64,000 nucleotides of DNA from a virus. The position numbers were made by a program, and so were the translations under genes. Where the stretch lies: positions 102,892 through 166,891 of IMG/VR virus record IMGVR_UViG_3300044972_002389. The stretch is one strand, 5' to 3'. The notes beneath the pieces were generated by a model. That model worked only from the letters and a program-made list of their open reading frames with translations. It searched no databases and was not told the DNA's origin. Shown here in pieces: positions 10 through 35,511 of this stretch. Positions within the stretch are counted from its first letter, which is position 1; the number at the start of each line of letters is the position of its first letter.

Positions 10-942
10 TCAGCGTGTTTTCCTTTCAATATCTGCAACAATCTTTTGATAGATGTCGTCTAGTTCTTTGGTTGAGAATTTCATTGTGCCTTCATTCAGC
101 CTATTGCTGAGATTTACGTCCAGACCAGCAATACGAATAGGACTATATTTCCTAGCAGCAGGCTTTTCAATTATTTGAAAGTAATCTGGATAGCTGGTGT
201 TCTTGGGAAACGTACTCCCAATAATTACTGTGCCTGGTACTCCAGAGGCTCTAGCAATATGCTGGCCTACACTGTCACATCCTACAAAATAGTCAGAGTT
301 GGCAACTAGAGCTGACCAAACTCTTAAATCAGCAGTGTATTTGGCACTCCAGTTGTCGTCTTTCAATTGAAAGTCAGGCTCGCCAAAAAAGATCATGTTG
401 TATTTTTGATTAAGACGCCGGCTCAGGCTCAAATAGTCGTTTGAGCTTAAGCTTCTGCTTTCTTCGTCAATCACTGTGGCACGATCCAGTTTGGCACCAC
501 GGCCAAAGGGTTGAAATACAATAGTTTTGTTCTTTTTGCTCACACTTTTGAGATCAGCTATGGTATTCTTGGCTACTAGAGTTTCTTGTTGATTGAATGC
601 CAAGCGTGGTGGCAATAAATCACTGTGATCTGTAGTTTGGTTGATTTCCCTGTCAAAAGCTTCAGCCAAACTTATCTCTTGCCTAAAATATGCTGGGATA
701 CGATAAGGCTCCGGGGTTACTATTTGATCAGCATTCTTGACTACGTTGTCAAAAACACCTTTTGTATCAAGATTGTAGGTGCGATCTTGCAGCTCGGGAA
801 TACCCCAGTATAAGAAATCCCATGCCCCAACCAACACAGCCCATTCGCTGTTGGGATGCAATCGACCGTATTTGATTAATGCAGGAATAGCGGTGATTAC
901 TCTACCAGCACCACCGTCTATCCAAAATATCTTTTTTGTCAT
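10..942 (-). CDS. GT9-family (heptosyltransferase-like) glycosyltransferase
   Basis: C-terminal VGCDSVGQHIARASGVPGTVIIGSTFP matches the GT9 D-S-G-x-x-H-L/I-A...G-T-P...G-P-T signature. The ORF-track start at 996 is a TTG; ATG at 942 is preceded by GAGGAA. Confidence 0.6.
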   Translation of the reverse strand: MTKKIFWIDGGAGRVITAIPALIKYGRLHPNSEWAVLVGAWDFLYWGIPELQDRTYNLDTKGVFDNVVKNADQIVTPEPYRIPAYFRQEISLAEAFDREINQTTDHSDLLPPRLAFNQQETLVAKNTIADLKSVSKKNKTIVFQPFGRGAKLDRATVIDEESRSLSSNDYLSLSRRLNQKYNMIFFGEPDFQLKDDNWSAKYTADLRVWSALVANSDYFVGCDSVGQHIARASGVPGTVIIGSTFPKNTSYPDYFQIIEKPAARKYSPIRIAGLDVNLSNRLNEGTMKFSTKELDDIYQKIVADIERKTR

Positions 943-1064
943 TCTAGTTCCTCGAAGCTTCAAGATATTATAAGGCAAATTGACTATTTTTGCCAAAATT
1001 TAAGATTCATCTGCCTATAATAGACTAAAAAGCTGTTGAGAACTTGACCAACACTTGTAGGTAG

Positions 1065-1763
1065 TCACAATTGCCGGCCTTTTGTCTGTCCCAGCCCTGT
1101 GTACCATTGTAGGAAGTCACCCTGATATTGCTTATAGCCGCCGTGCTTGCAAGTGATTGTGGTGTCAAGATATATGGGAAATCCGCCTTCCTGAAGTTTT
1201 TCAAACATACGTATGTCCTCACTCATAAGACCGGTGTTGGTAACTATCACATCACAGATCATTCGGCGTTGCTTCATGTCTTTGGGATCAATATAGGCTT
1301 GACTGGTGTTCCACAAATGGTTTATAGCTTGTCGACTCATGCGTGCAAATCCTGTGCCCAAGCCATCAACTTCCATCAAACCAGTTTGCGGGTCAATAGG
1401 GCGTTTAGTCATTTGTCTTACAACATATTCTGGACGATCCCCTTTTTTGGGATATGTGCCACCCACAACATCTACAGGATGATCCAGTAGTTTAAAAAAC
1501 TGTTGCGGGGTCCATTCAATATCTTGATCAATCCATACGAGATCATCAACACCGATCTCATATGCTAATTGCAAGGTGTCATTTCTAGCTCTTTGAATCA
1601 ATGCATCGAAGCTGACCCATAAGGGTAAAAGTTCAATGTTTCTTTTTTCAGCAGCTTTAGTAGTATAAAATAAACTGCTAGTGTAGCTGACCTCTACCTT
1701 GCCATCATAGCTAGGGGTGCCTATCATTACTCTGCGACGAGTTGATTGATTAAAATTTGCCAT
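1065..1763 (-). CDS. putative glycosyltransferase (fold unassigned)
   Basis: 232-aa ORF that overlaps and is co-oriented with two glycosyltransferase genes. It has a WIDQD acidic motif, and no confident family match can be made from sequence alone. Confidence 0.4.
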   Translation of the reverse strand: MANFNQSTRRRVMIGTPSYDGKVEVSYTSSLFYTTKAAEKRNIELLPLWVSFDALIQRARNDTLQLAYEIGVDDLVWIDQDIEWTPQQFFKLLDHPVDVVGGTYPKKGDRPEYVVRQMTKRPIDPQTGLMEVDGLGTGFARMSRQAINHLWNTSQAYIDPKDMKQRRMICDVIVTNTGLMSEDIRMFEKLQEGGFPIYLDTTITCKHGGYKQYQGDFLQWYTGLGQTKGRQL

Positions 1764-2635
1764 TCGTGTATTCTAGTGTTCCAACTGTAGAGTTTGTCAA
1801 ATAATAATGCTTGATTTTGCCATTGAGGGTTATTTGAATCATATTTGCTCAATTGGTTATCAAGAGATTTAGCAAAGGCTGCTGACAATACCCGTTTGTT
1901 GGTAGTATAGTCTACAAAACAAGCACTTTCGCCAAGGGTTTCTTCAAGAGCACCAAGTCGAGTGGTGACCACCTGGCACCCAGCACTAGCAGCCTCTATT
2001 GCTGAGATGCAGCTGGTTTCTGGGAAAGTGCTGGGATATACCCATAAGTGACTGCCTTGCAATCTCTTTCTCACAGCTTGATTGAGCCCGTAACCAACAT
2101 ACTGGATTTGAGTGTGCTGGCGACAGCGATCAAACAAAGACTGATAGCCTCTCATGGTGCTGTCACTGAAACCTTTGCCATAGATAATGGTGCTGCTGTA
2201 AACTGTGAGACGCCAGTTTTGATATTGCAGTTGGTCTACAGCATCCAGCAACACATCAAGTCCTCTCCAAGGAGTGCTGGTGTAGATCATTTCAATTTGC
2301 TGAGAGGCGGGTTTGAGTTGCCAATTGAAAGAGTGTATGGCATTGCGGATCACAACTGTTTTGTTTGGATCTATGCCAAAATAGTTTATCCATTTTATAC
2401 GTTGCCATTCACTTACAAATATCCAGCAAGCAACAGCCTGTTGAAACTGTGGATTAGCCGCACCTTGACTGGCCTCTTGGTCGGTGTCGAGATGCTGCCA
2501 AACAACGTTCTTTTTGTTGGGATCTATTTGATGTAAGCTGCAATTGCTTACTATGAGATTCAACGATGTTGGCCAACCTCCCAGTTGTTGAGAGAGATTG
2601 GCCATCATGAGTTCAGTGCCACCGCGTGGGATCAT
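1727..2635 (-). CDS. GT4-family glycosyltransferase
   Basis: FPETSCISAIEAASAGCQVVTT is the GT4 E-x7-E motif region. 302 aa. Confidence 0.6.
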   Translation of the reverse strand: MIPRGGTELMMANLSQQLGGWPTSLNLIVSNCSLHQIDPNKKNVVWQHLDTDQEASQGAANPQFQQAVACWIFVSEWQRIKWINYFGIDPNKTVVIRNAIHSFNWQLKPASQQIEMIYTSTPWRGLDVLLDAVDQLQYQNWRLTVYSSTIIYGKGFSDSTMRGYQSLFDRCRQHTQIQYVGYGLNQAVRKRLQGSHLWVYPSTFPETSCISAIEAASAGCQVVTTRLGALEETLGESACFVDYTTNKRVLSAAFAKSLDNQLSKYDSNNPQWQNQALLFDKLYSWNTRIHEWQILINQLVAE

Positions 2636-20349: not shown

Positions 20350-20631
20350 ATGCTGAGGCTTCTCAACTGGAAGCTGATGAAATGGTTCACGATGAGTTCT
20401 GAACGAAAAGTGCTGTATCAGCGGAATACTATGGGCTATTGGATCTTGCAGCATCCATCAGGTTTGTATCCTGCTGATACAGCACAGGGTTTTTGGAGTA
20501 ATCACCAGGTGGAAGCCATGAGATTCCTCACAAAAGAGGAAGCCAACGCCTGTGCTGAGTATCTCTCCACGAGCGTTATAAGCGGTATCAAATGTGACAG
20601 TCTCTTGGTGGAGCCGCTGTTTCAGATGTGA
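20350..20631 (+). CDS. hypothetical protein (start uncertain, possibly 20377/20392)
   Basis: ORF with several in-frame Met. Converges on the minus-strand GT25-like gene. Confidence 0.3.
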   Translation: MLRLLNWKLMKWFTMSSERKVLYQRNTMGYWILQHPSGLYPADTAQGFWSNHQVEAMRFLTKEEANACAEYLSTSVISGIKCDSLLVEPLFQM

Positions 20632-21350
20632 ACATCAGGGTTGTAGTTGGCATTGTGACAGAGATCATGCCACTGAGTTTGAGTGTCATCTCTATAAGCT
20701 TTGCCACCACCCTTCTCTTCTACAGCTAACATTGGGTAGATAAGGGCCCTGCGGCCGCTTTTGGTGATAGTCCAGTCAGCATTGTTTGAAATGCTATAAT
20801 GAGGATCAATCAAAGTTTTCCATTGGTGAACTGGGTCCTCAAATGTGTCTACAGCCCATTGAGCATGACGTCGGCGTATCATATACATTTGAGTACCATA
20901 AACATTGAATTCAAAGCTGTGATACGTGTAGGGCTGACTGATAATTGGCATAGTGGCCTCTACTCTAGAGATGGTTTCAGGCCTTAGGTATCCCAGCATC
21001 AATATATCCAAATCAAGCTTCTGGAAATTGGCTACCACACAAGGCAATTCTTCAGCAAAGTCTCGGCGGATCATAACATCATCCTCCACTACTATACAAA
21101 TTTCGTCACCTGAATAGATAAACTTTTTGAGAATCTTCATGTGACCAGCCATGCAACTCCAAGCCAGCTCGCTCCATTTGTTTTCTTTTTTGATCCTTTC
21201 TTTTTGCCAGTTATCTGGTGCCAGTGTGGGGTGCGATGCAGCAACACTCTCCACAAGAGAGATGTCTAGCCCCACTTGCTCAAACCGGTGTCGCATGCGT
21301 TCTGCTTTGCTGAGATTGCGAAAAGTTAGGCAATAGATCGTGGGAATCAT
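20622..21350 (-). CDS. GT25-like glycosyltransferase (LPS/LOS biosynthesis family)
   Basis: 242 aa. N-terminal IYCLTFRNLSKAERMRHRFEQVGLD resembles the GT25 I-x-V-I-N-L...R-R...L...G pattern. One of only two minus-strand genes inside the plus block. Confidence 0.45.
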   Translation of the reverse strand: MIPTIYCLTFRNLSKAERMRHRFEQVGLDISLVESVAASHPTLAPDNWQKERIKKENKWSELAWSCMAGHMKILKKFIYSGDEICIVVEDDVMIRRDFAEELPCVVANFQKLDLDILMLGYLRPETISRVEATMPIISQPYTYHSFEFNVYGTQMYMIRRRHAQWAVDTFEDPVHQWKTLIDPHYSISNNADWTITKSGRRALIYPMLAVEEKGGGKAYRDDTQTQWHDLCHNANYNPDVHI

Positions 21351-24188: not shown

Positions 24189-24386
24189 ATGGGCCCTACA
24201 CCGTGGAGCCACTTGCCTTATGAAGTTACCTTGCCCATCAACTCAGTTCACAATCTGTTGAAGATCAGCATCTGGTGCAACAACAACTTTGGTGACCAAC
24301 CCATCAAATGGATGTATATTGGGCAAGGTCGCTGGTTGTTTCCTTCAGAGGAGCAAGCTGCTGAGTTTGCGTTGATTTGGACATGA
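24189..24386 (+). CDS. LTW-motif small protein family, array B member 4
   Basis: IWCNNNFGDQPIKW...FPSEEQAAEFALIWT. Confidence 0.55.
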   Translation: MGPTPWSHLPYEVTLPINSVHNLLKISIWCNNNFGDQPIKWMYIGQGRWLFPSEEQAAEFALIWT

Positions 24387-24478
24387 ACAAAATTTGACAG
24401 CAGCGATAGCTACCTGTTTTGGCTGCTGACCGTCAGTTGACACAAACCAAATTGGCCTGCATAAATTGGAGTATGACA

Positions 24479-25531
24479 ATGGAAACTCTCAAACTACTGG
24501 CGGCCAATTTGCGTTGCACTGATGCAGATTTTGAAGCAAAATACGCTGATTTATTGAATCAAATCAACGTTGAACTGGACCAACGCGAGTTGAAGAAGCA
24601 GCTGGCCACTTATGCAGCTTCCTTAGGCAAAGAAAACAGTGTGCTGGATTTGAGCAGCAGTGTTGTTGGCCTCGAAGGCAAGATTGCATTTTGTTTGAAC
24701 CATGGTGCTGAGTTGAACGCAAGCAGTCTCACCCGAGTGGTGTTGCTGCTGGACCGCCTGGCAGAGCAAACTGAGCGAGCTACTCCCACATGGCAAAATT
24801 TGCCCATTACTAGCCAAACACGGCAGCGGGATCAGTATGTTAACTGTTACAGTCGAATTGACAACCTCAAAACACAAACGTTACAAGGCACTCGAACAAT
24901 ACGTGAGGTGGCAGCAGGTGTGCGAGACATTGTATCAGCGTATGCACCCAGCAACAGCGGAGTTCATCGTCAGTTATTGACTCATTACAAAGACTGTTTG
25001 CATGAAGCCCAAAGTGACCCCACTGTCAGCAATTGGGTGCCTGTGTTACGAACAGTGGTTGAAACCCTCACACTACTTAACAGCAATCGTGGCAGCATCA
25101 AACAAGGCAAGCGAACTGCACGGGCTAGGTTGATGAGCAGCACTGTTGACACTAGAGATCGCCAAGGAGAAGCTGCTGCCACTCGTATCAAAGTGAAGTC
25201 AACAGACACTGATTTGGGTATCACGTCAGTGGATCCCACTAATGTGGTTGGTGCTGAACTGGCCGTAGTCTACAACACCAAAACTCATCACGTGGAAGTG
25301 TATCGAGCCAGTGGAGAGCAAAAGCTCAGTGTGCAAGGGGCTCGCATCACCAATTTTGACCCTGCCTTGAGTCAAGGGCGAGCTTTGCGTGAGCCCGACA
25401 GTTGGCTGCCACGATTTACCAGCATTACCACAGTTCGACGTGCAGAAGTGTTGATGACCAGCCTCAAGGGCAAAAAGTGGGCACTCTCTGGCAAACTAAA
25501 CAGCAACCATCTTATCCTGAAAACTCTCTAA
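24479..25531 (+). CDS. hypothetical protein (about 350 aa)
   Basis: GGAG RBS 8 nt before ATG 24479. The ORF-track start at 24419 is upstream. Confidence 0.5.
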   Translation: METLKLLAANLRCTDADFEAKYADLLNQINVELDQRELKKQLATYAASLGKENSVLDLSSSVVGLEGKIAFCLNHGAELNASSLTRVVLLLDRLAEQTERATPTWQNLPITSQTRQRDQYVNCYSRIDNLKTQTLQGTRTIREVAAGVRDIVSAYAPSNSGVHRQLLTHYKDCLHEAQSDPTVSNWVPVLRTVVETLTLLNSNRGSIKQGKRTARARLMSSTVDTRDRQGEAAATRIKVKSTDTDLGITSVDPTNVVGAELAVVYNTKTHHVEVYRASGEQKLSVQGARITNFDPALSQGRALREPDSWLPRFTSITTVRRAEVLMTSLKGKKWALSGKLNSNHLILKTL

Positions 25532-25591
25532 AAAATCTTGCATTAGTGAAACGCCCTGTTACAACTGTTGGGCATATAGAGGAACAACGCT

Positions 25592-25897
25592 GTGGAACCC
25601 AAAGACCAACCAAACCCATTTGGTAAGTGGACCATTATTGGTGGGAATTTTCCACCGGAATGGAAAGATGACCCAGAAATGGCTCGGATCATGCAAGCAC
25701 TCTTGGAGGCTAGCATCATTGCTGCTCAGCGCGAAGAGGCTCTTGAACGACTTATGGGGGTCCAGCAGGATCCGGATCCTGAACTGGATGATGCCATTAC
25801 TGACATTATCCTTGACGATGTGCAGGAATATCCTGAGGCACTGGGTTGGATCATGGGCGCATATCGCAAGGGTGAAGAACTGGGCTGGAAACGCTAA
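25592..25897 (+). CDS. hypothetical acidic protein (101 aa)
   Basis: ORF only. Confidence 0.4.
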   Translation: MEPKDQPNPFGKWTIIGGNFPPEWKDDPEMARIMQALLEASIIAAQREEALERLMGVQQDPDPELDDAITDIILDDVQEYPEALGWIMGAYRKGEELGWKR

Positions 25898-25905
25898 AAC
25901 CACTG

Positions 25906-25934
25906 TTGACAACCCCGTAACCCCCTGCTACTTT
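25906..25934 (+). promoter_or_regulatory. candidate sigma70-type promoter
   Basis: TTGACA-17-TGcTACTTT, 7 nt before ATG 25941. Confidence 0.35.
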
Positions 25935-25940
25935 AGGCAC

Positions 25941-26177
25941 ATGAACAACAAACCCAAACCCACTCCCGCCCGTCTTGTGCGCAGCCTCATCACCCTGCTG
26001 GGTACACCTCGAATCCTGTTCAGCGACCGCATTCAAAATGGTCGCAGCATCAAGGTATGGGGGTGGGATGAACGCCTCTACAGCGAGGCCAGCATGATCC
26101 TTGCGCGGCATGGCTACCGTGTGCGCAAGGTAAAGACCTCGTTTGGCAGCACTCGTCTTCACGTGTTTGAGAAATAG
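25941..26177 (+). CDS. small basic protein (78 aa)
   Basis: MNNKPKPTPARL... is the internal start of ORF 25620..26177, placed directly after the candidate promoter. Confidence 0.35.
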   Translation: MNNKPKPTPARLVRSLITLLGTPRILFSDRIQNGRSIKVWGWDERLYSEASMILARHGYRVRKVKTSFGSTRLHVFEK

Positions 26178-26188
26178 GAAAACCGGTT

Positions 26189-26560
26189 ATGACCGATGAT
26201 CTCGGAAACCTTTCTGACAATGACTTCAAGCGCCTAGTGCACCTGGTGAACGAGATCATCCACCTAAGCCACGAAGGTGCTCGAGAAGGGCAAGCTCGGG
26301 CACACGACATCTACGCACTGTCACGAGATGCACGCGACATCTTGATCCTGGACGAAACCAGTCGGGAAGCTATGCGACGCCTCACAAATACTGAACGTCC
26401 CACCATGTATGGGGTCACCATCAGCAAGTCTGTGGAAGACTATGTTCGTGCTGGCATGAAGATCAATGCCATCAAAGAGCTGCGAACTGAAACGGCTCTG
26501 GGCCTGAAAGAGGCCAAGGACGTTGTGGAGGCTTTTGCCAGCACAATTACGCCCTTTTAG
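26189..26560 (+). CDS. protein with ribosomal bL12 (L7/L12) C-terminal-domain-like segment
   Basis: C-terminal [23 protein letters not shown] versus E. coli bL12 [21 protein letters not shown], about 14 of 20 identical. The N-terminal 75 aa are unrelated and the protein ends shortly after the motif. Confidence 0.55.
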   Translation: [123 protein letters not shown]

Positions 26561-26572
26561 GCACATCTTTGG

Positions 26573-26600
26573 TTGACAACACTCAATATCCTGCTATGTT
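26573..26600 (+). promoter_or_regulatory. sigma70-type promoter (consensus family)
   Basis: TTGACA-16-TGcTATGTT. Confidence 0.5.
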
Positions 26601-26624
26601 GCGCTGGTAAATGGAGTACATGAC

Positions 26625-27212
26625 ATGACCAACAAGCCTCAGAAGATCGTTGTTCACAAGCACGCCGCCAAGCGGTTGTTTCATGTGAGCATTCACAATG
26701 TTGACAGCAAGGCTGCTAACACCACTTGGCAGGGTATTGCAGGCAAGAGCCGTTATGCATATGAACAGGGCTTGGTAGGCAACTACAAGAACGATCGCGT
26801 TCTCACTGGTGGGCTGATGCTGGCTTTTGTCAACACCCAATATGAGGGTTGGGAAACACAGGACGTGGAGGGCGAGTTTCCCAACATGATCCGTGCTGCT
26901 GAACACAAGGAACAGGTGGCGGATCAGCTGATCCAGGAGGGTCTTACAAACGTTGGTGTGCGCAATGTGAACAGCAAGCGCGATCCCAGCAGTGATGGCA
27001 TGGGCAGCAACTGGAACGCCAAGTTCAACCCCAACCGGATGACAATGGCCAAGGTGAACGAGAAGATTGACTGGATCAACACAAGCCTGCAGATGAACAT
27101 CTCTCGAGACGTTCGGAGCCGGGCACTGCGGGCAGTGATTGGTGCTAACGGCAATGTGGACAGCATGGCTGGCCTGCTCCGCTTCATCCGACAGGAAATG
27201 GGCCTGGTTTGA
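26625..27212 (+). CDS. hypothetical protein (195 aa)
   Basis: ORF after a consensus promoter. Confidence 0.5.
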   Translation: MTNKPQKIVVHKHAAKRLFHVSIHNVDSKAANTTWQGIAGKSRYAYEQGLVGNYKNDRVLTGGLMLAFVNTQYEGWETQDVEGEFPNMIRAAEHKEQVADQLIQEGLTNVGVRNVNSKRDPSSDGMGSNWNAKFNPNRMTMAKVNEKIDWINTSLQMNISRDVRSRALRAVIGANGNVDSMAGLLRFIRQEMGLV

Positions 27213-27505
27213 TGGCTGCTGTTTATCGGATCCTGCATGTGCCTACTAGCATGTATTTTTGCCCCAGCAGGGAAGTGCGAGTCAAGCTCGCAGACCTACC
27301 CAGCTATTATGGCAGCGGCACGATTGCAGTAAAGAGCAATCTCAGCAAAACTGGTAAGACCTATCTCAAACTGCCTACCATCAAGCAAATTGGCCAAAGA
27401 TACTACACTCACTTGTTCAATTCTGTGACAGACATGGCTCCTGGAACACATTACTGTGTGAGGGCTGTGGTGGTGGATGAGTGGGTGGTTGAGGAAATGG
27501 CATAA
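27209..27505 (+). CDS. hypothetical protein (98 aa)
   Basis: ATGA overlap. Confidence 0.4.
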   Translation: MMAAVYRILHVPTSMYFCPSREVRVKLADLPSYYGSGTIAVKSNLSKTGKTYLKLPTIKQIGQRYYTHLFNSVTDMAPGTHYCVRAVVVDEWVVEEMA

Positions 27506-27514
27506 AGTTTTTGG

Positions 27515-27541
27515 TTGACACATAGCTACACCTAGTCTAAT
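27515..27541 (+). promoter_or_regulatory. candidate promoter (weak -10)
   Basis: GGTTGACA followed by TAGTCTAAT; weaker than the other family members. Confidence 0.25.
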
Positions 27542-27574
27542 GTGCGTTGATAAGACAGTTTTTGTGAGGACGAG

Positions 27575-28786
27575 ATGAGCAAGTTCAGTTGCCCTGTGGT
27601 GCGTGTGGCCGCAGTCGAAGAACATCCGAATGCGGATCGCCTTTCTCTTGTGCGCCTTGAAGGCCTCGGTTATCTCTGCATCGCAAACAAACTAGAGGAT
27701 GGTAGCCCGCGCTACAAGCCCGGTGACTGGGTCGTATACATTCCCTCAGCCTCGGTGCTGCCTGAATGGCTGCTCAAGGACATGGGATTTTGGAACGAAG
27801 ACGCTGGTAAGGGTGTGCTGGCAGGCAGTGATGGCAACCGTGTGAAGCCACTCAAGCTGCGTGGTATTTTCAGCGAAGGTGTGCTGTATGGGCTCATTGC
27901 ATATGGTGATGACGATTGCCTTTCTGCTGATTTTGGGTCGGCGACGGATGTACATGTAGTAGGCAAAGACAGTCTTGAATATCCAGTCAAGCTAGGCGAG
28001 GATGCTGCTGCAATCTTGGGCATCACCAGGTGGGAGCCGCCCATTCCCGCTGCGATGTCTGGTGAAGTTGCCAGTGTTGCTGAGGCTGCTCTTACCTACG
28101 ATTTTCAGCGTTGGGAGAGCGTGCCTGACATCTTCGAACCTGGTGAGGTGGTGGTGGCCCAAGAAAAAATTCATGGATCTTGTACCATCATCCAGTACTT
28201 CCCAGGCATGGACCATCCCGAGATGTTCCCCGACCATGCAGGCTACCGCAGCATCACTGTCAGCAGCAAGGGACTAGGCGGTCAGGGTTTGGTGTTCAAG
28301 AACAACGAAGCCAACGCCAACAACCTCTATGTGCGGGCACTTGGCACACTGCTAGCCGACCATGACCTCGCCGGGCTCCTCCACAGGATGAGCAAGGTGG
28401 ACGGCGGTGCTCATCCGGTGGCTATCCTGGGAGAAGTTTTCGGCAAGGGCGTGCAGGACCTCGACTACGGCACCACTAAGCCCACGTTCCGGGTGTTCGA
28501 CATGCGGATCGGGCGGGAGTGGCTAAGTCCCGATGCCGTGGCCTACTGGGCAAAGGACCTGCCCTGTGTACCTACCCTCTACACTGGCCCCTTTGACCAA
28601 ACTGCCATTGAGGCTGTGAGAGACGGTGTCACAACGGTGGGTGGCACCAATGTGCGGGAAGGTGTGGTGGTGCGCAGCCTGGTTCCCACCGAGCATCCCC
28701 TGCACGGTAGGAAAATCTGCAAATTCATCTCTCCGGCGTATCTGCTCCGCCGAGTGAAGAACGGCGAGGCAACGGAGTTCAACTGA
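27575..28786 (+). CDS. ATP-dependent RNA ligase, Rnl2-like nucleotidyltransferase domain fused to N-terminal tRNA-binding OB domain
   Basis: N-terminal VAAVEEHPNADRLSLVRLEGLGYLCIANK resembles the tRNA_bind (Trbp111/EMAP-type) OB fold. VAQEKIHGSCTII matches T4 Rnl2 motif I (VAREKIHGTNFSLII). EVFGKGVQDLDYG, REGVVVR and RKICKFISP parallel motifs III to V. Confidence 0.7.
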   Translation: MSKFSCPVVRVAAVEEHPNADRLSLVRLEGLGYLCIANKLEDGSPRYKPGDWVVYIPSASVLPEWLLKDMGFWNEDAGKGVLAGSDGNRVKPLKLRGIFSEGVLYGLIAYGDDDCLSADFGSATDVHVVGKDSLEYPVKLGEDAAAILGITRWEPPIPAAMSGEVASVAEAALTYDFQRWESVPDIFEPGEVVVAQEKIHGSCTIIQYFPGMDHPEMFPDHAGYRSITVSSKGLGGQGLVFKNNEANANNLYVRALGTLLADHDLAGLLHRMSKVDGGAHPVAILGEVFGKGVQDLDYGTTKPTFRVFDMRIGREWLSPDAVAYWAKDLPCVPTLYTGPFDQTAIEAVRDGVTTVGGTNVREGVVVRSLVPTEHPLHGRKICKFISPAYLLRRVKNGEATEFN

Positions 28787-28868
28787 TGCGCTACGATCTA
28801 CTGGAGGTCTACTGCTGCCTATGCCCAAGTCCCTAGACATATTGATCCCAGAAACAGAAACTTTCTGG

Positions 28869-28896
28869 TTGACAATGTCCGGAACTGTGCTAATAT
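28869..28896 (+). promoter_or_regulatory. sigma70-type promoter (consensus family)
   Basis: TTGACA-16-TGcTAATAT, plus a second TATAAT at 28901. Confidence 0.5.
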
Positions 28897-28923
28897 GACG
28901 TATAATACATAAAGGACTAACAA

Positions 28924-29196
28924 ATGAGCGATCTCCCCAAGCCTATGTTTGCTAACGTTGGCCGCGCGTATGTGGCTGCTGCCGCGTTGGGTCTAGACAC
29001 TAGCAATCTCAGTCGTGATCGTGCTGATACTGTGCTCCGCGCGCTGGTCAAAATGCCTGGTTGGCTGGAACAAAACCTGGATGTGTATCAGATGTGGATG
29101 GCTGATGTTGACCCCTGGCATTGCTTCATCCGTGACCTGAGCGCGTACACCAAGCAAGTGCGGGCTCACACGAAAGCTACCACGCGGGCCAAGTGA
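28924..29196 (+). CDS. hypothetical protein (90 aa), moron-like cassette
   Basis: Own promoter and RBS. Flanked by direct repeats of the ligase 3' end. Confidence 0.45.
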   Translation: MSDLPKPMFANVGRAYVAAAALGLDTSNLSRDRADTVLRALVKMPGWLEQNLDVYQMWMADVDPWHCFIRDLSAYTKQVRAHTKATTRAK

Positions 29197-29208
29197 GTAT
29201 CGACTGCA

Positions 29209-29290
29209 TAGCAGGAAAATCTGCAAGTTCCTCTCTCCGTCATATCTTCTCCGACGGGTGAAGAACGGTGAAACAACAGAGTTCAACTGA
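29209..29290 (+). pseudogene. orphan 3' fragment of an RNA-ligase homologue (last about 26 codons)
   Basis: About 86% nt identity to 28705-28786. Translation RKICKFLSPSYLLRRVKNGETTEFN-stop versus GRKICKFISPAYLLRRVKNGEATEFN-stop. The differences are mostly synonymous. Confidence 0.5.
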
Positions 29291-29302
29291 GTCGGGGCCA
29301 CG

Positions 29303-29581
29303 ATGACCGAAAACTATATTCTCTTGAAATGGGGCACACTCAAGGGCTATCGGGTAGCTGACAACCCTGTGGCGCAAGGTTTGATTAAACAGTACATGGA
29401 GTTGGGTGCCAGCGCCATGCACCAACAGGACACTCCCGAACAAAAACAAATCATATGCGAACTGCTGCCTGCTCTGGCGTGCCCGCGCCGTGCCTTCCCC
29501 AACCCATACGACCCCACAGGGCTGCTGCACTGGATCGCAACCCAGGAGCCGGTCATTCTCGGACGCGACCCCGCTGGCTAG
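29303..29581 (+). CDS. hypothetical ORF spanning the low-GC/high-GC junction
   Basis: GC content rises sharply inside this ORF from about 29450. It may be a junction artefact. Confidence 0.3.
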   Translation: MTENYILLKWGTLKGYRVADNPVAQGLIKQYMELGASAMHQQDTPEQKQIICELLPALACPRRAFPNPYDPTGLLHWIATQEPVILGRDPAG

Positions 29582-30745
29582 CCGGCTGGCCATTTCAGGA
29601 TGCCGCCATGTCACGCCGCTTTCTCGTTACCGGAGGTGCCGGCTTCGTCGGCAGCCATCTCGTCGCCGCCCTGCTGGACCAAGGCGCGGAGGTGGTGGTG
29701 TTCGACAACCTGCGCACCGGCCATCGCGAAGCCGTGCTCCCCGGCGCCACGCTGGTCACCGGCGCGCTGGAGGACCCCGATGCGATCGCGTCCGTGCTGG
29801 CGCAGGGGCCGTGGCATGCGGTGTTCCACTTCGCCGCGCTGTCGCTGGTGGGCGATTCCATGCGCGACCCGATCGGCTATCTCTCGGCCAATGTCGGCAA
29901 CGGCCTGCGCCTGTTGGAGGCCTGCGTGAAGCACGGCGTGCCCCGCTTCGTGTTCTCCTCCACCGCCGCCCTGTTCGGCACGCCAGACCGCATGCCGATC
30001 GACGAGGAAACCGCGATCGACCCCGGCTCACCCTACGGCGAAAGCAAATGGATGATGGAGCGCGCGCTGGGCTGGGCCGAACGCATCCACGGCATGCGCT
30101 CCGCCTGCCTGCGCTACTTCAACGCCGCCGGCGCCGACCCGCAGGGCCGCCTGGGCGAGGACCACACGCCGGAAACCCATCTGATCCCGTTGGCCATCGA
30201 CGCCATGCTCGGCCGTCGCGCCGAACTCGCCGTGTTTGGCACCGATTACGACACGCCGGACGGCACCTGCATCCGCGACTACATCCATGTCACCGACCTC
30301 GCCGCCGCCCACCTCGCGGCGCTGGAGCGGCTGGACCACGCCAGCGTCACCTACAACCTCGGCACCGCCGCCGGGCATTCGGTGCTGGAGGTGATCCAGA
30401 GCGTGGAGCGCGTCAGCCGCCGCCCGGTGCCGCACCGCTTCGCCCCACGCCGCCCTGGCGACCCCGCCCGCCTTGTTGCCAGCCCGGCGCGGATCATGCG
30501 CGAAACCGGCTGGCAGCCGCGCCTCGCAGCACTGGATGACATCGTCGCCACCGCCCTGGCCTGGCGCGAAGCCCATCCGCGCGGCTACGGCGGATGAGTT
30601 ACCGCATCCCGGCGCATCGGCCTGTGCGTGTTCTCAGAAGTGCATTTTTCACCTACTTATGTCCTCATCCGCCCAGCCGCCGCAGCGAGGACCGCCACGC
30701 CATGAGCCAGCCTGCCGCGACCACGGTCGCCAAGAACCTGGGCGC
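29450..30745 (+). other. high-GC (about 70%) island of foreign origin carrying galE
   Basis: Abrupt compositional shift relative to the roughly 45% GC flanks. It contains intact galE plus about 150 bp of donor 3' flank with a truncated downstream start (MSQPAATTVAKNLGA). Confidence 0.6.
29608..30597 (+). CDS. galE: UDP-glucose 4-epimerase
   Basis: LVTGGAGFVGSH Rossmann motif, YGESK catalytic Y-x-x-x-K, and full-length SDR-extended GalE architecture. High-GC codon usage. ATG at 29608; the ORF-track start at 29455 is upstream. Confidence 0.85.
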   Translation: MSRRFLVTGGAGFVGSHLVAALLDQGAEVVVFDNLRTGHREAVLPGATLVTGALEDPDAIASVLAQGPWHAVFHFAALSLVGDSMRDPIGYLSANVGNGLRLLEACVKHGVPRFVFSSTAALFGTPDRMPIDEETAIDPGSPYGESKWMMERALGWAERIHGMRSACLRYFNAAGADPQGRLGEDHTPETHLIPLAIDAMLGRRAELAVFGTDYDTPDGTCIRDYIHVTDLAAAHLAALERLDHASVTYNLGTAAGHSVLEVIQSVERVSRRPVPHRFAPRRPGDPARLVASPARIMRETGWQPRLAALDDIVATALAWREAHPRGYGG

Positions 30746-30885
30746 ATGACGCTGGAAGTCCTGCATGGAGTTTCCCAACCAAGAAACTTATCTGCAATGT
30801 TTGCTCACATGGAGTTGACGGCATCTGTGAGTCTGTTGCGTGTGATACAATGTACCAACACCCTCTCTATGGACGGAGATAAAAA

Positions 30886-30914
30886 GGTTGACACAGTCTG
30901 TCTGTGCTGTATAT
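30886..30914 (+). promoter_or_regulatory. sigma70-type promoter (consensus family)
   Basis: GGTTGACA-17-TGTATATT, then AAGGAG RBS and ATG 30940. Confidence 0.45.
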
Positions 30915-30939
30915 TGAAGCTACACAAGGAGAACAACAA

Positions 30940-31422
30940 ATGGAAGCCACGCCTGATCTAGCTGTCTACGTGCTGGCCCGAACTGATCTGCCCAGTATGA
31001 ACCCAGGAAAGCTGGCTGCACAAGTACATCATGCTGGAACCCAGATGATGAGCCTATTTGCAGATCATCCACTAGTTCAACAGTATGTTGCCGACGGTGT
31101 CTCACAAGGTGCCTACTACTTCAACACCACAATTGTGCTGGGTGCCACAATGGACCAGCTTCATGGTCTGAGATGCACTTATGGTTGGGAATACCACCTC
31201 ACTGTCAAGGGGTCAGTCGTCGACCCCAGCTACCCATTTTTTGTGGAAAATCAAGAGGTAGCTGATCTTGTTGCAGCTAATGGCAAGGCAGCTGTCATCA
31301 AAACCATGGATGATGGGCGTGTGCTGATGACTCGCCAAGAGACCACTTGCATTTGGTGCCTTGTGGATCGCAACAAGCCCGAAGTTTCAGACATTCTAGG
31401 CCATCTCAAACTCTATCCCTAA
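30940..31422 (+). CDS. PTH2-like (peptidyl-tRNA hydrolase 2 family) protein
   Basis: LAVYVLARTDLPSMNPGKLAAQVHHAG parallels the PTH2 N-terminal motif MVLVVRxDLxMGKGKIAAQxxHA. The remainder is divergent. Confidence 0.45.
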   Translation: MEATPDLAVYVLARTDLPSMNPGKLAAQVHHAGTQMMSLFADHPLVQQYVADGVSQGAYYFNTTIVLGATMDQLHGLRCTYGWEYHLTVKGSVVDPSYPFFVENQEVADLVAANGKAAVIKTMDDGRVLMTRQETTCIWCLVDRNKPEVSDILGHLKLYP

Positions 31423-31570
31423 CAACAAAGGACACTGCCTGTGCTATTGCTGATTGAACTCATCGGTGCTCTGGTGCTCATTGGCGTATGTGCCTATGGT
31501 GCCAGCAAACTGATCGAAAGTTTCTACGATCGCAACCGAACCCCTCCCGACCGCAAGGACCCCAACTGAT

Positions 31571-32491
31571 ATGTGGAATCAACCTCCGCGTGACTCCAAT
31601 CCTCGAATCAACCCTCTACAGGAGACTCCCCGAGTGAACGCTCGATTCATCGCTACCATGGTAGGTGGCGCAATGGCTGCTCTGCTGGCACTCACAGTGA
31701 TCCTCGGCAGCTGGTACACAGTTGATGAGCGTCAGCGCGGTGTGCTGCTCCGCAACGGCAAGCTGGTGAGCGTGGTGCAGCCAGGGCTGGGATTCAAAAT
31801 CCCCTTCATCGACAATGTGGTGCTCATGAGCACCGAGACCGTCCTGCTGCGACTGGACAAGGAAGCGGTCTACAGCCGAGACCAGCAACCTGCAACTATC
31901 ACCTTCTCGGTGAGCTGGCGTGTGAGCGAAGACAATGTGGACGATGTCTACAAGGAGTTTGGCGGGCTCCGAGGAGTTCAAGACCGTGTGATCCTGCCGG
32001 GTGTGCGTGACGAGCTCAAGAACGTAATGGGTCGCTACAACGCAGTCACAGCGATTCAGGATCGCACCCGACTGGGCACAGATGTCAAGGCGGCCATTGT
32101 GGCCAACATCAAAGGGCCGTTTGTGATCGAGAATCTGGCTATTGAAAACATTGATTTCAGTGACGCTTACGAAAAATCCATCGAACAGCGAATGCTCGCG
32201 GAGGTGGCTGTTGAAAGAGATCGACAGGATGCGATCCGAGAGAAGGTGCAGGCTGAAATTGTTGTAACCAAAGCGCAGGCCGAAGCTGATGCAGTCAAGG
32301 CACGAGCTGGAGCTGAAGCTGAAGCTATCCAACTGCGCGGCGAAGCTGAAGCCAAGGCCATCCGGGCCCGAGGCGATGCACTTCGCGCGAACGCAGAGCT
32401 AGTCACACTTACGGCTGCAGAGCGATGGGACGGTAAGCTCCCTACCACTATGGTCCCAGGTGCAGCACTGCCCTTTGTGCATGTGAAGTAA
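31571..32491 (+). CDS. SPFH/band-7 (HflC/prohibitin-like) membrane protein
   Basis: N-terminal TM segment. TVDERQRGVLLRNGKL...PGLGFKIPFID is SPFH-like. C-terminal Ala/Glu-rich coiled coil AEADAVKARAGAEAEAIQLRGEAEAKAIRARGD. Confidence 0.7.
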   Translation: MWNQPPRDSNPRINPLQETPRVNARFIATMVGGAMAALLALTVILGSWYTVDERQRGVLLRNGKLVSVVQPGLGFKIPFIDNVVLMSTETVLLRLDKEAVYSRDQQPATITFSVSWRVSEDNVDDVYKEFGGLRGVQDRVILPGVRDELKNVMGRYNAVTAIQDRTRLGTDVKAAIVANIKGPFVIENLAIENIDFSDAYEKSIEQRMLAEVAVERDRQDAIREKVQAEIVVTKAQAEADAVKARAGAEAEAIQLRGEAEAKAIRARGDALRANAELVTLTAAERWDGKLPTTMVPGAALPFVHVK

Positions 32492-32498
32492 TCAAACA

Positions 32499-32527
32499 GA
32501 AAGGTGGGTGAAAGCTCACCTTTCTCC
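32499..32527 (+). terminator. rho-independent terminator
   Basis: gaaaggtg-(10 nt)-cacctttc followed by a T-rich tract; 8 nt after the SPFH stop. Confidence 0.45.
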
Positions 32528-32555
32528 TTGACAAAAGTGTCAAACCCGCTAAATT
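32528..32555 (+). promoter_or_regulatory. candidate sigma70-type promoter
   Basis: TTGACA-16-cgcTAAATT, preceding ATG 32560. Confidence 0.4.
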
Positions 32556-32559
32556 ACAG

Positions 32560-32745
32560 ATGTTGATAAACCAAGTGAGCTATCCACACATGACCGAAGA
32601 TCAGATTGAGCGTACCGTGGAACGTGCAACAGATCGCCTGGACGAGCGTTATATGCGAGGGGAGATCAGCCGGGCACGCTATGCTGATGAAGCTGACAAG
32701 CTGAGTACATGGGCTGAACGCGAGTATCGCAGGGCGCGTCGGTGA
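32560..32745 (+). CDS. hypothetical protein (61 aa)
   Basis: ORF between a promoter and a terminator. Confidence 0.4.
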   Translation: MLINQVSYPHMTEDQIERTVERATDRLDERYMRGEISRARYADEADKLSTWAEREYRRARR

Positions 32746-33083
32746 AATTGGGACAACACCTACACCAACGCCAAATGCTGTTGGATCAAGAGCTGTTGAG
32801 AACCACGTTGTTGGCAGTGCAACGTGAGCGAGAACGTGTGCATGACCAGCACTATGATCTGGAACGCTTTAAAAGCCAGATCATCAGTTGTGTTTTGGAA
32901 AATCGGCCCATGCTCATGTTTACTCCTGGAAATAACTGGACTGACCCTCAAAATCCTGAACACCCTCCACGTTTTGTGTGCCATCGAGACCACAAGTTAT
33001 GGCAAGAGTTCCTAGTTTGGTTGGAAAGTGAACACATGGAAATCCAATACCATGGATGGAATTTCACTGTGATAGCCAAGTGA
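32742..33083 (+). CDS. hypothetical protein (113 aa)
   Basis: ATGA overlap. Confidence 0.45.
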   Translation: MKLGQHLHQRQMLLDQELLRTTLLAVQRERERVHDQHYDLERFKSQIISCVLENRPMLMFTPGNNWTDPQNPEHPPRFVCHRDHKLWQEFLVWLESEHMEIQYHGWNFTVIAK

Positions 33084-33364
33084 CAGAAGACAGAGTCTTC
33101 CACAATGCGCTGCTTTTGTTTCCCAAAGATCTTTTCTGCTGCTCTGTTACACTTGGCGAGGAATACTACCGCCAACAATACGAAATCTTGGATTGGCTAC
33201 GCCAACAAGGACCTGGTGACACTGGAATTGGTGATCCACCACAAGGTGAGTGCGTTTGGGCATATACACAGCTTTTTGGATACCAGTATATCGCTTTCCC
33301 CACTAGGGAACTGGTGACGCATTTTCAGCTGGTTTGGCAAAACAACACAGGACATAGTGGTTGA
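33056..33364 (+). CDS. possible LTW-family relative
   Basis: C-terminus FPTRELVTHFQLVWQN resembles the family motif. Cys/Trp-rich. Confidence 0.4.
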   Translation: MEFHCDSQVTEDRVFHNALLLFPKDLFCCSVTLGEEYYRQQYEILDWLRQQGPGDTGIGDPPQGECVWAYTQLFGYQYIAFPTRELVTHFQLVWQNNTGHSG

Positions 33365-33389
33365 CACGGATGTGCAGACTCTGTATGTT
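33361..33389 (+). promoter_or_regulatory. candidate sigma70-type promoter
   Basis: TTGACA-17-TGTATGTT, then AAGGAG and ATG 33414. Confidence 0.4.
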
Positions 33390-33413
33390 GTGGGTGTTGC
33401 AAAGGAGACGGAT

Positions 33414-34139
33414 ATGCGAATTGATGTGCCCAGCATCGTAAATGATCCCCAGATGAGAACCTTGCCCTATTGGCTGGAGGTATATCCCAATCAGGATCAA
33501 GCTCGCCGGGCTCGAGCACTGGCTCGCAAGGCGTATGATCGCACACGGCTAGCTGAGGTGCAGCGTTGGCGCTGCTGCTGGTGTCACTGCGAGATGCGTG
33601 GCGAACAAGGCTTCAAGAACAGTGCCACCATTGAGCACATCACTCCTCGCAGTTGTGGTGGCACTGACCACATCACCAACTTGGCTGTGGCGTGTGGCCG
33701 ATGCAACAACCGTCGAGGCAACACGCCCTGGGAAGATTTCCTGCAGGCTATGGAAATGAGTCGGCCCGCGCCTGAGACTGGCAGCTTTCGCTCACTGGCT
33801 TTTGAACGTAAGATGCGCCGAGAGGCTGCTGAGCAGAACAAGCGCATCAAGCAGTTGACTCATTTGGTGCGCAACCACGAGGTGCAAGCCACTGCTACTC
33901 AAACGCGACGCGAACAGTGCAAGTCACTGGAAGCCCAATACTCAGACATGCTGCCAGGATTGCAGCTGGCTGGTTTCCAACGAGCCAAGAGGATGCGTCG
34001 CGAAGTTGACCGTCAACTGGCACTGCAAGCCCTCTCACAAAAGGTCAGCAACCCTTTTGAAGTGGACAGTCGGCCCTGGCGCATCTACGAGCGTATGCGT
34101 AACAAGCAGAGTGTTGACACACTGCAAGCAGCCGCTTAA
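33414..34139 (+). CDS. HNH endonuclease
   Basis: CCWCHCEM...ATIEHITPRSCGGTDHITNLAVACGRCNNRRGN is an HNH motif with a C4 zinc site. ATG at 33414; the ORF-track start at 33357 is a GTG. Confidence 0.7.
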   Translation: MRIDVPSIVNDPQMRTLPYWLEVYPNQDQARRARALARKAYDRTRLAEVQRWRCCWCHCEMRGEQGFKNSATIEHITPRSCGGTDHITNLAVACGRCNNRRGNTPWEDFLQAMEMSRPAPETGSFRSLAFERKMRREAAEQNKRIKQLTHLVRNHEVQATATQTRREQCKSLEAQYSDMLPGLQLAGFQRAKRMRREVDRQLALQALSQKVSNPFEVDSRPWRIYERMRNKQSVDTLQAAA

Positions 34140-34147
34140 ATAAGGTT

Positions 34148-34441
34148 ATGAAAAGGTTCCTTGTTGCATTCATGTTGCTGTCCTCCAGTCCCTGTTGGGC
34201 GCAAGGATACCACTACCGCCCCTATGGCTATACTCCTGCGCCTCACTACCGCCACCATCACCATAACCACGGTGGCGGAAACTGGGTAGCCCCTCTTGTA
34301 GGGGGCATTGTTGGCGGTGCAGTGTTGGGCGCTATCATTGCACCAAACATCTATGCTCCTGCACCAGAGCCCATTTGCACTGATAGGCTAGTGGGATATG
34401 ATGTTTATGGTCGTGCCGTTGTGGAACGTTTTTGTAGGTAA
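34148..34441 (+). CDS. small secreted/membrane-anchored His-rich protein
   Basis: Signal-peptide-like MKRFLVAFMLLSSSPCWA, then an HYRHHHHNHGGG segment and a Gly-zipper hydrophobic helix. Confidence 0.5.
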   Translation: MKRFLVAFMLLSSSPCWAQGYHYRPYGYTPAPHYRHHHHNHGGGNWVAPLVGGIVGGAVLGAIIAPNIYAPAPEPICTDRLVGYDVYGRAVVERFCR

Positions 34442-34485
34442 AGTGTGCCTGCAGCCAGCACATCAATCATCCGAAAACAAACCAG

Positions 34486-34513
34486 TTGACAACCTTGCAA
34501 AACCTGCTATAAC
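34486..34513 (+). promoter_or_regulatory. sigma70-type promoter (consensus family)
   Basis: TTGACA-16-TGcTATAAC. Confidence 0.5.
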
Positions 34514-34540
34514 TCACGCAACGCAACAGAGGATACAGCA

Positions 34541-35443: not shown

Positions 35444-35455
35444 CCAAAAAACGGG

Positions 35456-35483
35456 TTGACAGCCCTGAAAATCGTGCTATACT
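35456..35483 (+). promoter_or_regulatory. sigma70-type promoter (consensus family)
   Basis: GGTTGACA-16-TGcTATACT. Confidence 0.5.
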
Positions 35484-35511
35484 GCCCACAGTAGCTGGAA
35501 AGGCGCTGAAC

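Follow-up and report, generated by a model that had tools for sequence, protein, structure and literature searches.

Lambda gal specialised transducing phages carry a fragment of host DNA with galE, the gene for uridine diphosphate (UDP)-glucose 4-epimerase, which they obtain via illegitimate recombination. In the Hendrix-type model, illegitimate recombination likewise gives rise to phage 'morons' and mosaic accessory slots, and the classical moron brings its own promoter and terminator. Bacterial GalE belongs to the extended short-chain dehydrogenase/reductase (SDR) family and is represented in the Protein Data Bank (PDB) by entries such as 2c20, 1udc/1xel and 1ek6. In phages, galE has been reported as an NAD-dependent lipopolysaccharide (LPS) biosynthesis gene in gut jumbo phages (PMC11662467), as an O-antigen nucleotide-sugar auxiliary metabolic gene (AMG) in groundwater phages (PMC12911398), and in AMG tables of cyanophages (PMC10436341). 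Here we describe a galE island of ~1.3 kb in a 64,000-nucleotide stretch of a virus genome (IMG/VR record IMGVR_UViG_3300044972_002389, positions 102,892 to 166,891; the whole stretch is called the window below). The island is carried by an uncultured freshwater phage of ~327 kb with a large lytic-type genome. Our overall explanation, which we hold with considerable confidence, is that a host-derived galE was captured, trimmed and spread among phages, and that it encodes a functional epimerase.

The locus resembles the nucleotide-sugar and LPS AMGs of other phages in that a host-type UDP-glucose 4-epimerase, presumed to alter surface glycans or to feed phage glycosyltransferases, lies in a phage genome. 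It differs from them in its readable history (donor locus, empty sites, junctions, remnants, nested trimming and spread) and in a base composition that is still near that of the donor. In the phage collection searched, 293 records have GalE-like sequences, including Synechococcus and Rhizobium/Agrobacterium phages annotated with UDP-glucose 4-epimerase or nucleotide-sugar epimerase. None of them exceeds 49% amino acid (aa) identity to the GalE of the window, and on that basis the window galE is an independent acquisition. A megablast search of window positions 24000-36000 against 50,697 phage records gave no match, and a blastn search of the island gave two weak matches only, both to unannotated faecal 'Bacteriophage sp.' contigs.

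As in morons, the insert lies between conserved phage genes in a variable slot, has an odd composition and short microhomologies, and lacks mobility machinery. Unlike them, it seems to be embedded in a phage transcription unit, and it overwrote parts of two resident genes. A consensus scan found no promoter- or terminator-like sites within 29467-30764, a weak negative since the scan is crude. With the lambda gal phages the locus shares a chromosomal host fragment that carries galE and truncated neighbour genes. However, there is no integrase or att site nearby and so no sign of integration or aberrant excision, and the genome is of the large lytic type. Nor is the fragment a defective one-off particle: it has become fixed in natural populations, selection acts on it, and several backbones carry it. 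Judged from its sequence, the island is a real, host-derived auxiliary gene that should be functional; phage-borne galE is already known, and this is no new kind of system. Phage galE is usually an entry in a list, whereas here the acquisition of a host gene is legible nearly base by base. The island thereby offers a worked example of large phages domesticating host genes. It also predicts a concrete host, freshwater Acetobacterales, for an uncultured phage of ~327 kb, and it suggests that these phages need a supply of nucleotide sugars.

The galE island and its product

The island occupies window positions 29467-30764 on the plus strand and has a GC content of 0.698. These limits were set by blastn against an unrelated phage locus (L104) that has only the island in common with the window. 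The remaining 1298-nucleotide (nt) segments of the 64-kb window have a mean GC of 0.466 (standard deviation 0.039, maximum 0.567), which gives the island a z of 6.0. In a 200-nt profile, GC changes from 0.49-0.55 to 0.63-0.77 between ~29450 and 30700 and then returns to 0.48-0.52. Outside the island the profile ranges over 0.40-0.56, and the whole window has a GC of 0.467.

A preliminary description of this DNA had placed a high-GC island at 29450-30745. Recomputation upheld it, with non-uniform GC and with limits that were ~17 nt or less from those set by comparison. The GC profile and the positions of the open reading frames (ORFs) also bear out the earlier placement of the GC switch inside the ORF at 29303..29581. 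The figure of about 45% for the surroundings fits the window as a whole, but the immediate flanks are closer to 50%. What that description overlooked is that the island holds the last ~38 codons of the donor's upstream gene, in an in-frame fusion to a truncated phage gene. The features of the island and its edges are listed here, with a slash at each junction break.

29467..30764, plus strand: donor-derived high-GC island, equivalent to positions 4849-6157 of the bacterial contig L108 and missing from the phage relatives L010, L093 and L094.
29303..29581, plus strand: chimeric 92-aa ORF, made of 54 codons of an 87/88-aa phage gene, 7 out-of-frame donor codons and the last 30 codons of the donor 353-aa gene.
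29461..29471, no strand: left junction, GAACTGCT/GCCTGCTCTGG, with the break at 29466/29467 and a CTGCT(C)TG-type microhomology.
29483..29492, no strand: point in the donor remnant at which 10 nt were deleted between GCGCCG direct repeats; the L104 sequence here is GCGCCGATCTGCGCCG.
29597..29600, plus strand: AGGA, Shine-Dalgarno (SD)-like, 7 nt before the galE ATG and kept in all three phage configurations.
29608..30597, plus strand: intact galE, UDP-glucose 4-epimerase, 329 aa, assigned by TIGR01179, PF01370, PDB 2c20 and motifs.
30630..30681, plus strand: conserved AT-richer donor intergenic element of ~50 nt, GTTCTCAGAAGTGCATTTTTCACCTACTTATGTCCTCATCCGCCCAGCCGCCG, found in L101, L009, L008 and all phage copies.
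30702..30749, plus strand: complete 15-codon donor upstream ORF (uORF), MSQPAATTVAKNLGA-stop, with counterparts in L101 (MTQPAAPPVAKIQGA-stop) and L009 (a 20-codon version).
30746..30760, plus strand: start of the donor family 2 glycosyltransferase (GT2) gene, ~4-5 codons (MTLE..), its ATG overlapping the uORF stop (ATGA).
30758..30764, no strand: right junction, ..ACGCTGGAAG TCCTG/CATGGAG.., identical in the window, L096, L097 and L106; collinearity with L010 resumes at 30763.
30765..30818, plus strand: remnant of a ~99-aa phage gene, its last 17 codons (MEFPNQETYLQCLLTWS-stop), with the first ~80% overwritten; the full gene is in L010 and a diverged 73-aa allele in L097.

The galE gene is full-length, as had been claimed. 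Its 329-aa product scores 388.3 bits against the NCBIfam equivalog TIGR01179 (galE; cutoff 262.3), with residues 5-326 of 329 covered, and matches PF01370 with an E-value of 4e-57. It aligns with the GalE of PDB entry 2c20 over residues 5-327 (E 1.4e-93), and all 33 PDB sequences that match it at E < 1e-40 are GalE. The Rossmann NAD-binding motif GxxGxxG (GGAGFVG, residues 9-15) and the catalytic YxxxK (YGESK, residues 143-147) are present, and FSSTAA in the catalytic Ser region aligns with FSSTAA of 2c20. Our analyses predict that the gene encodes a functional NAD-dependent UDP-glucose 4-epimerase. The protein shares with bacterial GalE of the extended SDR family the full-length alignment, the GxxGxxG and Ser...YxxxK motifs and a score above the TIGR01179 cutoff, and differs in being encoded by a virus. 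Its 'gatekeeper' site (Tyr299 in E. coli) appears to be Leu (...GDPARLVAS...), as in enzymes that also take N-acetylated substrates; we treat this as a lead and not as a test. The high-GC codon usage noted earlier is evident in the GC content at third codon positions (GC3), which is 0.88 in galE vs 0.47-0.63 in neighbouring phage genes.

Empty sites, donor lineage and junctions

Three phage relatives lack the island at the same site. One of them (L010; IMG/VR UViG_3300042894_005510) has ~86% nt identity to the window and is collinear with positions 27590-29466 and 30763-32491. Between these blocks it has 328 bp, vs ~1296 bp in the window, consisting of the 3' end of an 88-aa gene and a ~99-aa gene (2042..2341 in L010) that ends in ...MEFPNQETYLQCLLTWS-stop. 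In the more distant L093 and L094, collinearity is lost at window position ~29464 and regained at ~30853-30869; both keep an intact 87/88-aa gene, followed by other small ORFs at ~50% GC. These two were the useful ones among three loci returned by a metagenome scan with the PTH2-like protein, and scans of viral contigs returned only L010/L092 and the distant L011. Because the three relatives carry differing small phage ORFs at this position, the insertion site is a variable accessory-gene slot. In the window lineage, the island replaced ~80% of the 99-aa gene and the last ~34 codons of the 88-aa gene, which reads ...CELLRVHQGPIINDWSGEE... where it is intact (L010, L093, L094 and L097). None of the 88-aa, ~99-aa and 90-aa phage ORFs could be assigned to a family by Pfam or PHROG searches, nor could the donor 353/356-aa gene.

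The island is of bacterial origin. The closest homologues of its GalE are cellular and lie in a conserved cellular neighbourhood. The 90% protein cluster of GalE has 54 members, closer bacterial versions included. Two bacterial contigs of 70-72% GC (L101 and L108) have 89.7-89.8% nt identity to the window island and 89.7-91.5% to the phage islands generally, non-coding flanks included. Relative to the window GalE, aa differences number 15 for P0125 (L101), 12 for P0129 (L108) and 9 for P0134, with 9-16 changed residues out of 329 among donor-lineage GalE overall. In the donor lineage, galE is preceded by a 676/688-aa gene and then a 353/356-aa gene, and it is followed by genes for a ~930-aa GT2 and a family 4 glycosyltransferase (GT4). 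The same synteny is found in L101, L108 and L008, and the full 926-aa GT2 is present in both L101 and L108. L008 and L009, bacterial contigs of 71-73% GC, carry GalE homologues with 84-89% aa identity. Named protein matches come from Acetobacteraceae metagenome-assembled genomes and Limobrevibacterium gyesilva, and the nearest named genome is 'Acetobacterales bacterium TH-08apr19-80' (84% aa identity). A phage contig with galE (L107) and a contig of the donor lineage (L102) were both recovered from one sample (JGI 3300046006). The donor was very probably the host of the phage or a close relative of that host.

At the left junction, collinearity with L010, L093, L094 and L097 stops at 29464-29468, and donor similarity begins at 29467. 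Here the donor sequence is CGCCTGCTCTGG, and that of the intact phage gene in L097 is GAACTGCTCTGCC, the common patch being of the CTGCT(C)TG type. The donor part starts within the last ~50 codons of the 353-aa gene, whose C-terminus is ...RRAFPAPFDPAGLLHWIATQEPAILGRGPAG-stop. Alignments of the window with L104, L101 and L108 revealed that the 10-nt deletion returns the remainder of the remnant to the donor's native frame; in this frame the tail of the chimeric ORF runs to the native stop codon of the donor, which lies 26 nt ahead of galE. At the right junction, the context is ...ATGACGCTGGAAG TCCTG/CATGGAGTTTCCC, where the donor continues GAGGCCCCGCTCTGGCTCGAG and phage L010 reads CACCTGGCGCATGGAG.

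No direct or inverted repeat pair brackets 29467/30764, and the junctions show only 5-8 nt of microhomology. The island has no mobility gene, as it consists of galE and neighbour-gene remnants only, and the nearest HNH endonuclease gene (33357..34139) is 2.6 kb away. The lack of bracketing repeats and of a mobility gene gives the pattern of illegitimate recombination. Together with the syntenic donor-lineage loci and the empty-site relatives, this supports the earlier proposal that chromosomal DNA was captured from a high-GC bacterium by an illegitimate event. Transposon, integron and homing-element origins were considered and rejected, with no repeats and no mobility gene found.

The 15-codon ORF downstream of galE had been taken for the truncated start of another donor gene. 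The ORF exists, but it is not truncated: its bacterial counterparts have their own stops, and it is therefore a complete short ORF of the galE-GT2 intergenic region. The element at 30630-30681 is almost invariant, although flanks and coding sequences differ by 9-16%. No family was assigned to it when 29400-30900 was compared with Rfam, the sole match being a spurious long non-coding RNA (E 0.47). In the donor, the intergenic region has this near-invariant element and then the uORF, whose stop overlaps the GT2 start; the two may form a conserved regulatory leader of the bacterial glycosyltransferase operon.

Configurations, spread and selection

The island was found in three configurations: type A is that of the window, type B is present in L096-L100 and L106, and type C in L104 and L105. 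In type B, whose GalE (P0122) is on 16 contigs, the 88-aa gene is intact, and an L010-type 99-aa gene contributes its first 26 codons, joined to donor position -14 at a GCCATT microhomology; the fusion product is MARINPYYRNNLVLTEHDKVVVELPF/QDAA-MSRRF.... The type B right junction is the same as that of the window, and it is followed by the backbone's own diverged 73-aa allele, which is intact. In type C, L104 is on a 177-kb contig whose backbone shares only the island with the window (96.2% over 29467-30764, blastn). The type C island has a remnant of at least 34 nt of the donor 676-aa gene (L108 3709-3742), a ~1.07-kb internal deletion, and the equivalent of L108 4838-6293, including ~58 codons of the GT2 gene.

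On L108, the donor extents are ~3709-3742 plus 4838-6293 for type C, 4849-6157 for type A and ~4985-6157 for type B. These ends are nested, with A lying inside C and B inside A, from which we infer a first capture of at least 2.6 kb that was trimmed later. Remnants of three neighbouring host genes are visible across the configurations. Each configuration cut the donor DNA on both sides and left galE and its SD intact.

The frame upstream of galE is open across the junctions in all three types (window 29303-29581, L097 2583-3662 and L104 3554-3925). It forms a 92-aa chimera that runs to the donor's native stop in type A, 26 phage codons fused to GalE in type B, and a 123-aa triple chimera in type C. 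These open frames could reflect translational coupling or polarity avoidance, or could be due to chance, as stop codons are rare in 70% GC DNA.

We compared synonymous divergence (dS) between the window and the type B locus L097. The island/galE has a dS of 0.077, and the backbone has 0.67 for the RNA ligase, 0.37 for orf90 and 1.16 for the SPFH gene; the PTH2-like gene (0.12) and orf42 (0.03) are close to the island value. Moreover, the L097 island lies within a foreign (L010-type) allele of the 99-aa gene, beside the native allele. The contrast in dS and the foreign-allele flanks indicate that the cassette moved between already diverged backbones. A further contig, L107 (JGI 3300046006, Ga0485181_006763), has a left flank of type B and a right flank of type C, and the pattern of single-nucleotide polymorphisms (SNPs) along its galE changes over between positions 763 and 855. 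Either this contig is a natural recombinant inside galE, or the assembler crossed over in the 1.3-kb repeat shared by co-occurring phages.

The three types might instead stem from several independent captures from the same host locus. Type C differs at both junctions and sits in an unrelated backbone, and the SNPs form a mosaic in which the window and L104 each share some ancestral states with the bacterial copies. With the true donor unsampled, the 54 shared phage differences from L101 could also be donor polymorphism. Yet types A and B have an identical right junction, the donor ends are strictly nested, and the three copies are closer to each other (2-3.4% divergence) than to the nearest bacterial DNA (7.3-8.1%). 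Derived changes in the non-coding flanks are common to the phage copies (for example, GCCATTTCAGGATGCC upstream of the ATG), and the L097 island inside a foreign 99-aa-gene allele is an instance of cassette transfer. We consider several captures unlikely and favour one capture followed by trimming and phage-to-phage spread. The preliminary description called the capture recent, which holds only in a relative sense, since the phage copies are already 2-3.4% apart and ~7.5% from the nearest bacterial DNA in hand.

Pairwise, the phage galE copies differ at 22-34 of 987 nt and at 3-4 aa, with a ratio of nonsynonymous to synonymous divergence (dN/dS) of 0.03-0.06. They differ from L101 at 72-80 nt and from L009 and L008 at ~130-144 nt. 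The window and type B (L097) are separated by 22 nt and 3 aa, a divergence that arose inside phages, because the two share the right junction. A working galE has been under purifying selection while in phages. GC3 is 0.875-0.884 in the phage copies vs 0.915-0.93 in the closest bacteria. Polarised GC-to-AT and AT-to-GC changes number 34:5 in the phage lineage and 53:23 on the bacterial branches (Fisher p = 0.042). Amelioration has begun, but it is slight.

The almost unameliorated base composition (GC3 0.88) would also fit a neutral passenger, that is, real but functionless DNA that has not yet decayed. The loss of two phage genes to the island means that the slot tolerates junk, and useless donor remnants (the uORF, the GT2 start and the tail of the upstream gene) persist in the island. 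Such a passenger would not be expected to gather so few aa changes for its nt changes, at a dN/dS of 0.03-0.06, including between two copies that share a junction and so diverged within phages. Nor does it fit trimming on both sides in every configuration with galE and SD kept, or the spread of the cassette across diverged backbones. We find it quite improbable and retain selection for galE as the preferred reading.

The island sits among phage genes, with an RNA ligase gene upstream and genes for PTH2-like and SPFH proteins downstream. A PHROG search of the window identified a 3310-aa virion structural protein (phrog_10938, 1002 bits), tail fibres, two homing endonucleases and thymidylate synthase; two RNA ligases, the PTH2-like and SPFH proteins and an HNH endonuclease are further products of the window. 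The exact GalE protein is encoded on at least 16 contigs, and contigs reach 326-329 kb. Seven loci with the exact GalE (ENA ERZ27272062 and ERZ27272044; Logan SRR27419724; JGI 3300034082, 3300042907 and 3300043467; NCBI GCA_043535365.1) were drawn from seven samples in several data sources; across both junctions, their identity to the window is 99.4-100%. The gene order RNA ligase, 90-aa ORF, 92-aa ORF, GalE, PTH2-like, SPFH is the same in all seven.

An assembly chimera, in which a phage contig was joined to high-GC bacterial reads and back, had been raised as the alternative to capture. The abrupt GC change at both island ends, the short microhomologies at the junctions, and the related contig L107, which could be an assembler cross-over inside the shared island, are of the kind that a chimera would leave. 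The recurrence of the same junctions in at least seven loci, from separate samples and data sources, refutes this alternative. Two junction-specific details, the 10-nt deletion and the in-frame fusion, recur throughout, and the two other configurations are each present in several samples. All contigs shown for the exact GalE allele are phage-flanked, and no bacterial contig with this allele was found. A chimera thus retains next to no probability, and the insertion is genuine. Reverse transfer, in which the bacterial galE genes would come from phage, has nothing in its favour beyond sequence similarity itself and is scarcely credible, because fragments of bacterial neighbour genes sit inside the phage island, which refutes a phage-to-bacterium direction, while galE has a host-like composition in bacterial contigs of 70-73% GC, keeps its synteny across lineages 12-18% diverged, and is compositionally alien in the phages.

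Expression, proposed role and neighbouring genes

Two promoter-like sites next to the island bear on its expression.

28869..28896, plus strand: sigma-70-like promoter, TTGACA-16-TAATAT with TG, a consensus match only; the nearest promoter-like site upstream.
30888..30915, plus strand: sigma-70-like promoter, TTGACA-16-TATATT, 11/12 matches, before the next phage unit (PTH2-like gene) and conserved in L010 and L097.

As the nearest upstream site, the first probably drives orf90, the chimeric ORF and galE, and the consensus scan found no terminator-like site between it and galE. It is probable, from this arrangement, that galE is transcribed from an upstream phage promoter as part of a phage operon. 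A promoter-like motif (CAnAAAnTTTnTGGTTGACA, 16 nt, TAnAnT-type box) recurs at 27501-27520, 28855-28874 and 30880-30915, before successive small gene units, and may be the phage's own early or middle promoter type.

The preliminary description connected galE with glycosyltransferase genes at 10-2635 and 20622-21350. This context stands for 20622..21350 (minus strand), which encodes a GT25-family protein (30 bits vs a cutoff of 24), and for 1727..2635 (minus strand), which encodes a GT1-family protein and adjoins the gene for a 2378-aa tail-fibre-like protein; the ORFs at 10..996 and 1065..1763 had no Pfam match. In the type C locus L104, genes for an SDR dehydratase/epimerase, a formyltransferase, a GT2-like protein and an FkbM methyltransferase lie 2-5 kb downstream of galE. 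Use of the UDP-galactose by phage glycosyltransferases downstream of GalE is plausible, and we suggest it tentatively.

We propose that a large lytic-type phage captured part of a polysaccharide-biosynthesis locus whose owner was a freshwater alphaproteobacterium of ~70% GC, from the Acetobacterales/Acetobacteraceae lineage. The route would have been illegitimate, microhomology-mediated recombination into a variable slot of small accessory genes. The captured DNA, of at least 2.6 kb, would then have been whittled by deletions that always spared galE, with 1.3 kb left in the window lineage, and the cassette would have spread by co-infection recombination into other, already diverged backbones. 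GalE would convert host UDP-glucose (possibly UDP-GlcNAc) to UDP-galactose (UDP-GalNAc) for phage glycosyltransferases, and the end use may be to remodel the host surface glycan or to glycosylate phage components.

Several observations weigh against this explanation. The GC gap between phage and donor (47% vs 70%) is large for a phage and its host, and a tRNA scan of the window for host clues found no tRNA genes. The nearest bacterial DNA in hand is still ~7.5% different from phage galE, and part of the divergence and of the low dN/dS could therefore predate capture. The SNP pattern among the phage copies is mosaic, which makes recombination among the copies or with host genes probable, and repeated captures or gene conversion possible. 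For expression, the match count of the promoter scan was no better than in shuffled sequence. For the role, the link between galE and the GT25 and GT1 genes consists solely of their co-occurrence in the same genome, 8-28 kb apart.

A broader reading joins these parts. The galE island would be a favoured portable cassette between unrelated freshwater jumbo phages, which recombines (possibly with host galE) and reshuffles genomes by shared homology, L107 being such a recombinant. It would mark a ~327-kb phage of ~47% GC as a virus of ~70% GC Acetobacterales, and its enzyme would feed UDP-galactose (or UDP-GalNAc) to GT25, GT1 and GT2 enzymes that glycosylate virions or remodel the host surface. 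As a whole, this reading is speculative, and we regard it as rather doubtful.

Upstream of the island, the last 96 nt of the RNA-ligase gene (28691-28786) are duplicated 504 nt downstream (29195-29290) at 82% identity, with mostly synonymous differences (…KICKFISPAYLLRRVKNGEATEFN-stop vs …KICKFLSPSYLLRRVKNGETTEFN-stop). A promoter-like site and the 90-aa ORF lie between the two copies (28787-29194). The duplication is shared by L010 and L097, the latter with an extra NTP_transf_2 gene after the ligase. In L093, which is without the 90-aa cassette, the ligase gene runs straight into the 88-aa gene. The duplication has the look of an earlier cassette insertion in which a second copy of the ligase 3' end was carried in.

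RNA-repair-type genes are unusually concentrated in the window, at 27575-28786, 35512-36729 and 47236-48468, where two RNA ligases (one of the PF09414 type and one of the T4 Rnl1 type) and a phosphatase/polynucleotide-kinase-like protein are encoded. They are accompanied by the PTH2-like peptidyl-tRNA hydrolase gene (30904-31422), and the type-B relative adds a Thg1-like gene. This concentration suggests a tRNA-repair module. A 123-aa phage protein encoded at 26189-26560 (plus strand) matches the C-terminal domain of ribosomal L7/L12 (PF00542, 31.6 bits, cutoff 25.9) over residues 90-120 only.

Across the near-identical loci, SNP density is 0 in the island vs 0.06-0.75% outside it. We gave this contrast no weight, since exact GalE identity was the criterion by which the loci had been retrieved, and all of the flank SNPs fall in one divergent tract at 33.9-34.4 kb. 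In this tract (window 33941-34400, in and just after the HNH gene 33357..34139), L003 and L005 differ from the window by a dense set of ~45-65 substitutions, and the phage genomes are otherwise without differences across 24.2-33.9 kb. The pattern suggests a locally replaced tract, through endonuclease-associated gene conversion. Elsewhere in the window, adjacent homing/HNH endonuclease genes at 10057-11319 (plus strand; phrog_1314, 3e-103) and 11343-12374 (minus strand; phrog_655, 9e-39) sit in a stretch of GC 0.41-0.42 between the gene for the 2378-aa tail-fibre-like protein and a region of small ORFs.

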